Positions 8,072-8,551 of a stretch of 26,278 bases of DNA are shown here, piece after piece. Within the stretch, counting starts at the first letter, position 1, and each line of letters starts with the position of its first letter. A program made the translations under genes and the position numbers. This DNA is from a virus: UHGV virus genome UHGV-0200387; one strand, 5' to 3'. The notes under the pieces were generated by a model that was not told the DNA's origin, made no database searches, and saw only the letters and a list, made by a program, of their open reading frames with translations.

Positions 8072-8096
8072 TTCATTGCTCCAGACGAATGATATG

Positions 8097-8119
8097 ATGC
8101 AATCATGATGTGATTGCAT
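8097..8119. promoter_or_regulatory. 9-5-9 inverted repeat between divergent mnt and tailspike starts (candidate operator)
   Basis: ATGCAATCA (8097-8105) / TGATTGCAT (8111-8119), perfect 9-bp arms around TGATG. Lies 26-48 bp upstream of the tailspike ATG and about 75 bp upstream of the mnt ATG, overlapping plausible -35 elements on both strands. Confidence 0.35.
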
Positions 8120-8192
8120 ACCGAAATGGTACTATTGAGTATTTATCCAGTAGGTTACGATGCCATTCCACCCAACTGGTGAGACATCAAGG

Positions 8193-8453
8193 ATGTACAG
8201 CAAATACGACGAGGCGCAGTTTCACTTGAGACTTCCGCATGAACTCCACGCGAAAATTAAGCAGCGTGCGAAGATGAATAACAGGTCGCTGAACTCAGAG
8301 ATAATTGCAGCGATTGAAGAATCATTGGCTAAACAAAGCTCTGCATCAGTTTACATTGACGATGCAGAGCGTATGGCAGAACAACAATCTGATATGGTTA
8401 AGAAAATTGTCTTTGATACGCTCAAGGAGCTATATAAAAAAGACAGCAACTAA
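8193..8453 (+). CDS. mnt: Mnt-like ribbon-helix-helix repressor (Arc/MetJ family)
   Basis: 86 aa from ATG 8193. ...FHLRLPHELHAKIKQRAKMNNRSLNSEIIAAIEESLAK...DAERMAEQQSDMVKKIVFDTLKELYKK aligns with P22 Mnt (N-terminal RHH, C-terminal coiled coil) as recalled. It is on the strand opposite the late operon, as in P22 immI. Confidence 0.75.
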   Translation: MYSKYDEAQFHLRLPHELHAKIKQRAKMNNRSLNSEIIAAIEESLAKQSSASVYIDDAERMAEQQSDMVKKIVFDTLKELYKKDSN

Positions 8454-8473
8454 CCATCCATTACGGAGGATTT

Positions 8474-8551
8474 ATGCAAAGAGATATGATGAATATTGCG
8501 TTCTACATATTTGGTTTTTGCACGTTCCTGGTGTTTGCGAAGCTATTCTGA
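8474..8551 (+). CDS. 25-residue hydrophobic peptide (MQRDMMNIAFYIFGFCTFLVFAKLF), hypothetical
   Basis: ATG 8474 is preceded by GGAGG with 4-nt spacing, 20 nt after the mnt stop. Single predicted TM-like segment. The 3' end overlaps the convergent gp16 stop region by 9 nt. Too short for the ORF track; coding status unproven. Confidence 0.3.
   Translation: MQRDMMNIAFYIFGFCTFLVFAKLF

Follow-up and report, generated by a model that had tools for sequence, protein, structure and literature searches.

The stretch of DNA analysed here, 26,278 nucleotides (nt) of the virus genome UHGV-0200387 and called the window throughout, is a junction of the E. coli chromosome and a P22-like (Lederbergvirus) prophage, and our subject is the interval of that prophage between the tailspike gene and the homologue of P22 gene 16 (8072-8543). 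Both flanking genes belong to the late operon on the minus strand, which runs from further virion genes upstream through gene 20 (10540-11895) and gene 16 (8543-10540) to the tailspike gene (5801-8071), the last gene of the operon. On the plus strand, the interval holds an mnt homologue (8193-8453) and a 25-codon open reading frame (ORF), a candidate small gene called ORF25 below (8465-8551), and a 9-5-9 inverted repeat lies between the divergent starts of mnt and the tailspike gene (8097-8119). The best explanation, in which we place moderate confidence, is that these elements make up a minimal 'ant moron' of three separable modules, the mnt module, the tailspike leader and ORF25, and that the repeat is probably an RNA stem-loop in the leader of the tailspike mRNA within the late transcript.

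A lone mnt gene between gene 16 and the tailspike

The tailspike gene, as given in the ORF list, encodes a P22-type head-binding N-terminal domain (Pfam Head_binding, 2.8e-67, residues 1-113), and the copies in relatives are annotated as tailspike or head-binding domain protein. Its start codon is 8071-8069 on the minus strand, with a Shine-Dalgarno GGAG at 8082-8079; an earlier reading of this DNA from its letters alone, the sequence-only reading, had given 8072, and the elements it named are otherwise present where it placed them. The gene 16 homologue, also in the ORF list, encodes a DNA ejection or transfer protein, annotated in relatives as P22-gp16 family or DNA transfer protein. Between the two (8072-8543), neither an ORF nor homology corresponding to arc or ant was found, so that the ant gene of the P22 immI region is missing, and an Rfam scan of 7800-8800 with E values up to 10 returned only noise, with no match to the sar antisense RNA either. 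What occupies the slot is a variable, independently transcribed gene set between the homologues of gene 16 and gene 9, on the strand opposite the late operon, and at least six alternative contents were found in this slot among relatives.

Such an insert between gene 16 and the tailspike of P22-like phages is the 'ant moron' of Villafane et al. 2008 (PMC2629481), who described ST64T, ST104 and a Paratyphi prophage as carrying mnt alone plus one unknown gene, and Sf6 as having no moron. A lone-mnt moron is also present in phage L (phage L genome, PMC8022706), and the function of the lone mnt is noted as unknown in the literature. We confirmed a lone mnt divergent from the tailspike gene in ST64T, ST160, Proteus phage Brookers, Gally, 720R6, Sf101 and IME10; the closest phage records over 7950-8650 are IME10 (96%) and Sf101 (97.8% over the mnt part), and part of the locus is matched in 421 of 5,426 complete E. 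coli genomes. Judged from its sequence, the locus is a common, already described cut-down P22 immI region in an E. coli prophage, retaining mnt alone. With its architecture already published, the locus as such is ordinary; only the leader hairpins and ORF25 add to what we found in the literature.

The 86-residue product of mnt combines a ribbon-helix-helix N-terminal domain (Pfam Arc, 7.5e-15; PDB 1MNT, 3.4e-19 over residues 6-79) with the Mnt-type C-terminal coiled-coil helix for tetramerisation (Pfam Repressor_Mnt, 3.4e-14, residues 57-82; PDB 1QEY, 1.7e-8). These matches and the gene order uphold the description of a reduced immI-like locus in which a lone Mnt homologue stands divergent from the tailspike, without arc or ant. 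The protein is 48.8% identical to P22 Mnt, and its DNA-binding beta-strand reads Q-F-H-L-R where P22 Mnt has H-F-N-F-R. No premature stop occurs in 100 of 102 distinct nucleotide variants of the gene, and nucleotide diversity by codon position over the 102 variants is 0.014/0.017/0.055, highest at third positions; by these substitution patterns mnt is maintained under purifying selection, with no sign of decay. An in-frame upstream ATG at 8160 would give a 97-residue Mnt with an N-terminal extension of 11 residues. Sf101 is annotated with this upstream ATG, PGAP uses 8193, and JEP4 too has an open upstream frame. Which start is the true one is of consequence, as Mnt contacts DNA with its N-terminus. 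Work by Knight, Sauer and Youderian has reportedly established that N-terminal residues of Mnt set its operator specificity. Mnt homologues are widely mislabelled 'partition protein ATPase' in RefSeq phage records (our loci L002, which is Sf101, and L008/L009) and in PHROGs (phrog_795).

In the P22 record NC_002371, the Mnt operator Omnt is annotated (protein_bind) immediately 5' of the -35 hexamer TTGAGA of the mnt promoter, Pmnt, with the ant promoter, Pant, overlapping on the other strand. An alignment of mnt upstream regions places operator and Pmnt in an identical register in the window, P22, ST64T, ST160, 720R6, Gally, Brookers and JEP4. The positional homologue of Omnt in the window is a 17-bp site without strand at 8117-8133, CATACCGAAATGGTACT, which divides as CATACCGA-A-ATGGTACT, is followed by ATTGAG and lies directly 5' of the Pmnt -35. 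At the same register P22 has AGGTCCAC-C-GTGGACCT, then ATTGAG; ST64T and ST160 have AAGACCAC-G-GTGGTCTT, then ATTGTG; 720R6 and Gally have GAGACCAC-T-GTGGTCTT, then ATTGAG; and JEP4 has CATACCGA-A-ACGGTACG, then ATTGTT. The predicted operator occurs once in the window and overlaps the final 3 bp of the 9-5-9 repeat.

Across all fetched loci, the site at this position tracks the class of the Mnt beta-strand. There are four classes, three of them with a clear dyad: HFNFR with AGGTCCAC-N-GTGGACCT (half-site GGTCCAC), QFNLR with A(A/G)GACCAC-N-GTGGTCTT (half-site GACCAC), and QINIR with GGTATAAC-C-GTTATACC. The window belongs to the fourth, QFHLR, with CATACCGA-A-A(T/C)GGTAC(T/G) and the half-site (C/A)ATACCG, and relatives of this class carry a perfect 5-3-5 palindrome there (TACCG-AAA-CGGTA, TACCA-AAA-TGGTA or TACCG-AGA-CGGTA). 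The register shared with P22, the tracking of Mnt class and the relatives that restore the palindrome together place the operator at 8117-8133, and Mnt most likely binds this predicted 17-bp site.

A search for the operator 17-mer outside the mnt context identified no trans targets of the window-class Mnt. An exact 16-mer of the predicted window-class operator, CATACCGAAACGGTAC, occurs twice, 515 bp apart, in the contig L497 (7577-7594 and 8092-8109) and in some 20 IMG/VR contigs like it, each time with a TATATA box directly before it and a small gene downstream. These contigs, of an unrelated family and up to ~56 kb long, have no Mnt homologue in the fetched parts, and the family is unmatched in E. 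coli genomes; the pair may be a coincidence or a shared regulatory site. A second recurrent match to the 17-mer away from mnt, in a phage of high GC content, seems to be a coincidence.

The predicted Pmnt on the plus strand (8135-8161) has a -35 hexamer TTGAGT at 8135-8140 and a -10 hexamer TACGAT at 8156-8161 and aligns with the annotated P22 Pmnt (TTGAGA-17-TATCAT). Its spacer is 15 bp in the window type (8141-8155) and 17 bp in the JEP4 type (L010, L045, L047), ST64T and P22, a difference that would weaken Pmnt and shift any remnant of Pant. Under relaxed scoring, two extended -10 motifs on the plus strand, TGgTACTAT (8127-8135) and TGaTATGAT (8090-8098), are other candidates. Within the Pmnt spacer, CAGTAGG (8148-8154) corresponds in the alignment to the left half-site of the P22 Arc operator, and CAGTAG(G/A) is found in all lone-mnt classes; this retained remnant suggests that a complete immI, having lost arc and ant, gave rise to the lone-mnt modules.

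The sequence-only reading proposed that Mnt, if the repeat is its operator, would control a promoter leading straight into the tailspike gene, and no convincing promoter of this kind emerged from the sequence. On the minus strand a consensus promoter scan returned nothing, and on the plus strand a single 9/12 match, at chance frequency. The position of Pant is decayed on the minus strand, with TAAATA aligned to P22 TATATT (Pant hexamers TAAATA/AATACT, -35 matches 4/6). The best leftward candidate, ATGGCA-17-AATACT (8166-8138), agrees with the consensus at 8 of 12 positions, and relatives of the JEP4 and ST64T types do not conserve it. There may be a weak Mnt-sensitive leftward start, and nothing supports one.

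The 25-codon open reading frame

ORF25 begins 20 nt after mnt, with a GGAGG at 8465-8469 four bases before its ATG at 8474 and a stop codon at 8549-8551, and it runs convergently into the end of gene 16, sharing its last 9 nt with that gene. The peptide MQRDMMNIAFYIFGFCTFLVFAKLF (8474-8551) has a polar N-terminus, a hydrophobic stretch of 16-17 residues and a lysine near the C-terminus, with a single hydrophobic helix predicted. A hydrophobic 25-codon ORF with a GGAGG after mnt is thus present as the sequence-only reading described it; what does not hold is its implied attachment to mnt. ORF25 always accompanies the 3' end of one gene-16 allele and is also found without mnt, and Sf101 has mnt and no ORF25.

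Of 57 homologous nucleotide variants, 56 preserve the start, frame, length and stop of ORF25. The sequences upstream fall into five kinds of junction, four of them unrelated, and diverge at or just before the ATG: GGAGGATTT-ATG after mnt, AAAGGTATCGCCT-ATG after a gene for a 161-residue protein, GAGTCT-ATG where ORF25 stands alone in Sf6-type phages, GGAGGGTTGGCT-ATG in an mnt-less context, and …CATCGCCT-ATG in L208, which resembles the junction after the 161-residue gene. In two of these contexts a GGAGG is provided. Amino acid replacements are conservative (M/L/I/T, I/L, K/R), changes in the divergent N-terminal codons are synonymous or conservative, and diversity peaks at third codon positions, with 0.067 against 0.013/0.039 at the other two in the core and 0.32 against 0.16/0.08 in the N-terminal part. 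No significant RNA fold was found over ORF25 on either strand, which leaves no RNA structure to account for the conservation.

Sf6 itself offers an instance, since its gene 13-gene 14 intergenic region (L003 3123-3286; L005 3407-3570) contains an intact, unannotated 25-codon ORF. In many relatives the gene between mnt and ORF25 encodes 161 residues with an N-terminal hydrophobic segment (phrog_6067; L007 3971-4456, L006, L202 2494-2979), and a comparison of it with P22 SieA showed no similarity.

The competing explanation is that ORF25 is not a gene and that its 78 nt are conserved through linkage to, or overlap with, the 3' end of gene 16, or as non-coding sequence of the late transcript. We give it a substantial chance, somewhat short of even. 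Consistent with it, ORF25 has never been annotated: tblastn against phage records returned 9 records, none with an annotation, Pfam and PHROGs gave no match, and an exact look-up of five variants in a collection of 15 billion proteins found none of them. A scan with a degenerate back-translated pattern gave, among the matches listed, mostly chance hits from AT-rich genomes and one relevant E. coli locus. In the Sf6-type context the ribosome-binding site is weak and there is no consensus promoter. The site-count test, of synonymous against non-synonymous sites, gave a modest codon-position signal that falls short of significance (changes 15/10/18; synonymous fraction 0.33 observed, 0.24 expected), and the hydrophobic core shows conservation at each of the three codon positions, as expected of young, linked DNA. 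Set against this are the frame retained almost without exception, the junctions that break at or just before the ATG, two of them with GGAGG, and the coding-like pattern of the substitutions. On this moderate evidence for coding we lean slightly towards ORF25 being a real gene. A role related to superinfection exclusion is a guess, made because ORF25 is linked to an ejection-protein allele.

The inverted repeat and the tailspike leader

The repeat at 8097-8119 reads ATGCAATCA-TGATG-TGATTGCAT on the plus strand, and its arms of 9 bp are 100% complementary, just as the sequence-only reading had noted. Read as minus-strand RNA it is AUGCAAUCA-CAUCA-UGAUUGCAU, with its 3' end 25 nt before the tailspike AUG and a predicted fold of -10 kcal/mol (z -3.3). 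Such a repeat is within chance for 26 kb: counting perfect arms of at least 9 bp with a loop of 3-12 nt, the window has 3 loci, with a mean of 0.97 in mononucleotide shuffles of the window. Its credibility therefore rests on conservation and structured variation in relatives. The other two loci are at 25489-25517 and, close to the end of mlaA, at 926-955, where the repeat is nested and its arms reach 12 bp.

The perfect form of the window is a minority among relatives, found in 7 of 115 distinct contexts. The dominant form, ATGCAACCA...TGATTGCAT (93 of the 115), has a C·A mismatch as DNA and a G·U pair in minus-sense RNA, and a compensated form, ATGCAACCA/TGGTTGCAT, occurs in five. All other transitions in the stem likewise give a wobble pair only in the minus sense. 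Across 21 distinct window-type leaders, 187 of 189 stem cells are paired in the minus sense, 23 of them as G·U, versus 164 of 189 in the plus sense with no G·U.

P22-type leaders have a different hairpin, CCGUAGC-CAU-GCUGCGG, at the same position in P22 (L008 1085-1101), epsilon34, ST64T (L259), L004 and JEP4. In a set of 40 distinct sequences, minus-sense pairing holds for 272 of 280 cells (43 G·U) and plus-sense pairing for 230 of 280; two pairs have changes on both sides, and the observed value was reached in 8 of 500 shuffles. The variant in Gally and 720R6 (L203/L202) pairs only in the minus, or mRNA, sense, by three G·U pairs. In both the window type and the P22 type, then, pairing is kept on one strand only, through G·U and compensatory changes, as expected of a conserved stem-loop. 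P22 has a second, partial copy of the right arm of the leader hairpin near t_ant.

Sf6-type leaders make up a third family. They fold into a 15-bp hairpin whose minus-sense form is the more stable one in every case (for example, -22.9 versus -9.1 kcal/mol). In Sf6 it is GCAAUGCCGGGCAAG-UUGCAU-CUUGUCCGGCAUUGC and is unannotated, in the same intergenic region as the 25-codon ORF (L003 3123-3286; L005 3407-3570). All three families end 19-27 nt before the tailspike AUG and leave the GGAG free. Because variants of the repeat keep their pairing in the minus sense only, and because two other leader families behave alike, we read it as probably being a stem-loop in the tailspike leader. In JEP4 (L010), a remnant of a P22-type tailspike start and leader (CATTTAATTTGCTCC… plus the hairpin) lies next to mnt at 2350-2365, and the functional tailspike gene, of another type, starts about 190 bp from this remnant.

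The repeat may instead have no function and be a recombination scar, or 'boundary sequence', that joins an Sf6-like leader to the mnt module and is kept by recent common descent. The junction of the mnt module does fall inside the right arm, with TT(G/A)CAT before ACCGAAA in both leader types, and the window-type leader looks like an Sf6-type leader that has been shortened. In the CUS-3 record the region carries annotated 'boundary sequences', the sequences compared are closely related (98% mean column identity), and the perfect repeat is statistically unexceptional, as said above. Against a scar, however, every single-step change in the stem keeps the minus-sense pairing and one is compensated, and the independent P22-type and Sf6-type leaders each have a hairpin there too, likewise with minus-sense bias and compensatory changes. 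We therefore consider a scar unlikely, at roughly the level of an outside chance worth keeping in mind.

The distribution of the repeat bears on the proposal of the sequence-only reading that it is the Mnt operator, which by its own account would be refuted, among other things, by absence of the repeat from related prophages with the same mnt. Such absence was found: the repeat is missing beside near-identical Mnt proteins (95-100% identity, with the same DNA-binding beta-strand). In L004 (E. coli LR-50), JEP4, L019, L045, L047 and L051, a P22-type gene-9 leader (…GCCGCAGCATGGCTACGG…) takes its place, fused to the same predicted operator, and in L036 and L083 other sequences replace it beside the same Mnt. 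Homology of these relatives to the window begins at about 8113-8117. Sf6-type phages without mnt, in turn, retain ATGCAA-N11-TTGCA(T/C), the outer part of the repeat, upstream of the tailspike gene. The repeat thus neither co-occurs with its cognate Mnt nor lies at the position of Omnt, since it is 5' of the aligned site, and the alignment with P22 immI picks out the adjacent 17 bp at 8117-8133.

That bound Mnt acts through the repeat on a promoter leading directly into the tailspike is accordingly very unlikely, the least probable by far of the explanations considered: the repeat is a perfect palindrome between divergent genes, the loss of arc and ant would leave the Pant position facing the tailspike, as judged by homology with P22, and a start from ATGGCA-17-AATACT would fall in or beside the predicted operator and make some Mnt-sensitive leftward transcription possible, but the repeat is unlike the site aligned with P22 Omnt, is missing from prophages with the same Mnt, keeps its outer part in mnt-less phages, is in its common form imperfect as a DNA palindrome and perfect only as minus-sense RNA, and has half-site centers 14 bp apart versus the 17-bp Omnt layout, and the leftward candidate, at 8/12, is lost in JEP4-type relatives.

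We also considered the repeat as a Rho-independent terminator and rejected it. Three of its nine pairs are G-C, and the stem is followed by CAUAUCAUUCGUCU when read in the minus sense and by ACCGAAAUGG when read in the plus; as there is no U-tract, it is not an intrinsic terminator. A terminator-like hairpin does occur farther upstream on the late strand, at 8331-8370 on the minus strand, antisense within the linker codons of mnt and ~260 nt upstream of the tailspike start. It reads GCUCUGCAUC-13 nt-GAUGCAGAGC, then UUUGUUU, corresponds to a perfect 10-bp repeat in mnt (GCTCTGCATC…GATGCAGAGC) and folds at -18 kcal/mol (z -4.1). The terminator scan missed it because only loops of 3-8 nt were allowed. 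It is conserved in relatives, with changes mostly in the loop, and by analogy it could act as t_ant does in P22.

Outside the interval, the window contains mlaA and a gene for a formate/nitrite transporter, then the prophage integrase and an acyltransferase gene, before the late operon. The acyltransferase (Acyl_transf_3; 4704-5752) is spread over two ORFs, 4704-5396 and 5336-5752, that overlap in different frames, which points to a frameshift in an O-antigen acetyltransferase gene or to an error in sequencing.

A proposed three-module moron and its relatives

In the arrangement that we favor, the first module would consist of the operator, Pmnt and mnt, with Mnt bound at 8117-8133 regulating its own transcription; autoregulation is expected because the operator abuts the -35 of its own promoter. 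ORF25 would be co-transcribed with mnt in the window and, by virtue of that co-transcription, would also come under Mnt control. The second module would be read from the other side, by a late transcript that runs from gene 16, antisense through mnt, into the tailspike gene, and that would form the stem-loop 25 nt before the AUG. This stem-loop, a member of one of at least three sequence families at that position in P22-like phages, probably protects or insulates the translation-initiation region of the tailspike after a long untranslated antisense stretch, and it may serve as a processing site or a 5' stabiliser. The third module would be ORF25, encoding a membrane peptide with a single helix and belonging with the 3' end of its gene-16 allele.

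Several points weigh against this arrangement. The window-type hairpin is short and AU-rich, at about -9 to -10 kcal/mol. The substitutions amount to about a dozen independent events over two families, the flanking sequence has some bias in the direction of mutation, and the shuffle control for the window-type family was uninformative. The sequences are related by descent, so the argument from strand asymmetry is suggestive and not rigorous, and the literature searched assigns no function to a leader hairpin in P22-like phages. The predicted operator is a weak, imperfect dyad in which only TACC...GGTA is symmetric (4 of 8 positions per half-site), and the predicted Pmnt, with its 15-bp spacer, was not called by the consensus promoter scan. 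For ORF25, the site-count test and the weak ribosome-binding site without a consensus promoter in the Sf6-type context belong here too.

Compared with P22 immI, the window shares the slot between gene 16 and the tailspike, a homologous mnt with both domains and the register from operator to the Pmnt -35. It differs in lacking arc, ant, sar and t_ant, all of which are present in P22, and in the operator core, which is GGTCCAC...GTGGACC in P22 and is predicted to be TACCG...(C/T)GGTA in the window. In P22, termination of transcription ahead of gene 9 is said to control expression of the tail protein (Berget, Poteete and Sauer 1983; ref. 76 in PMC2629481). The window likewise has a structured late-strand element between moron and tailspike and a terminator-like hairpin upstream (8370-8331), but its 9-5-9 hairpin has no U-tract, and the terminator-like element is antisense in mnt and not downstream of ant.

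The lone-mnt morons of ST64T, ST104 and phage L resemble the window, with mnt only, divergent from the tailspike, and an operator that abuts the leader hairpin of the tailspike. Their Mnt belongs to another specificity class and their leader to another hairpin family, and the accompanying small gene is orf62 in phage L, whereas it is ORF25 in the window. The gene 13-gene 14 region of Sf6 has the same gene-16 3' end and the same 25-codon ORF (MQRDLLNIAFYIVGFCTFLVFAKLF) as the window, and its tailspike leader, which contains ATGCAAC...CATTGCA, is related to that of the window. Sf6 differs in having no mnt module, a leader stem of 15 bp (-20 to -30 kcal/mol) instead of 9 bp, and a weak ribosome-binding site for ORF25.

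Placing the operator at 8117-8133 and not in the repeat leads to a testable recognition table of four natural Mnt specificity classes, in which beta-strand residues are set against half-site sequences, and such a table would be useful for work on ribbon-helix-helix recognition. More tentatively, and with real doubt on our part, P22-like phages, including Sf6 and P22, could share two unannotated elements: stem-loops 19-27 nt before the tailspike start that would set tailspike expression from the late transcript once this has crossed the antisense moron, and, in ORF25, an inner-membrane peptide expressed by the prophage (here under Mnt control) that would act in superinfection exclusion or membrane perturbation matched to the type of ejection protein. 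The leader hairpins, which appear to be conserved and fall into three sequence families, bear on an old question, that of how tailspike dosage is set across a variable moron, and ORF25 is a conserved micro-ORF in a region of Sf6 regarded as empty, which makes it a concrete candidate for a small membrane protein expressed by the prophage.

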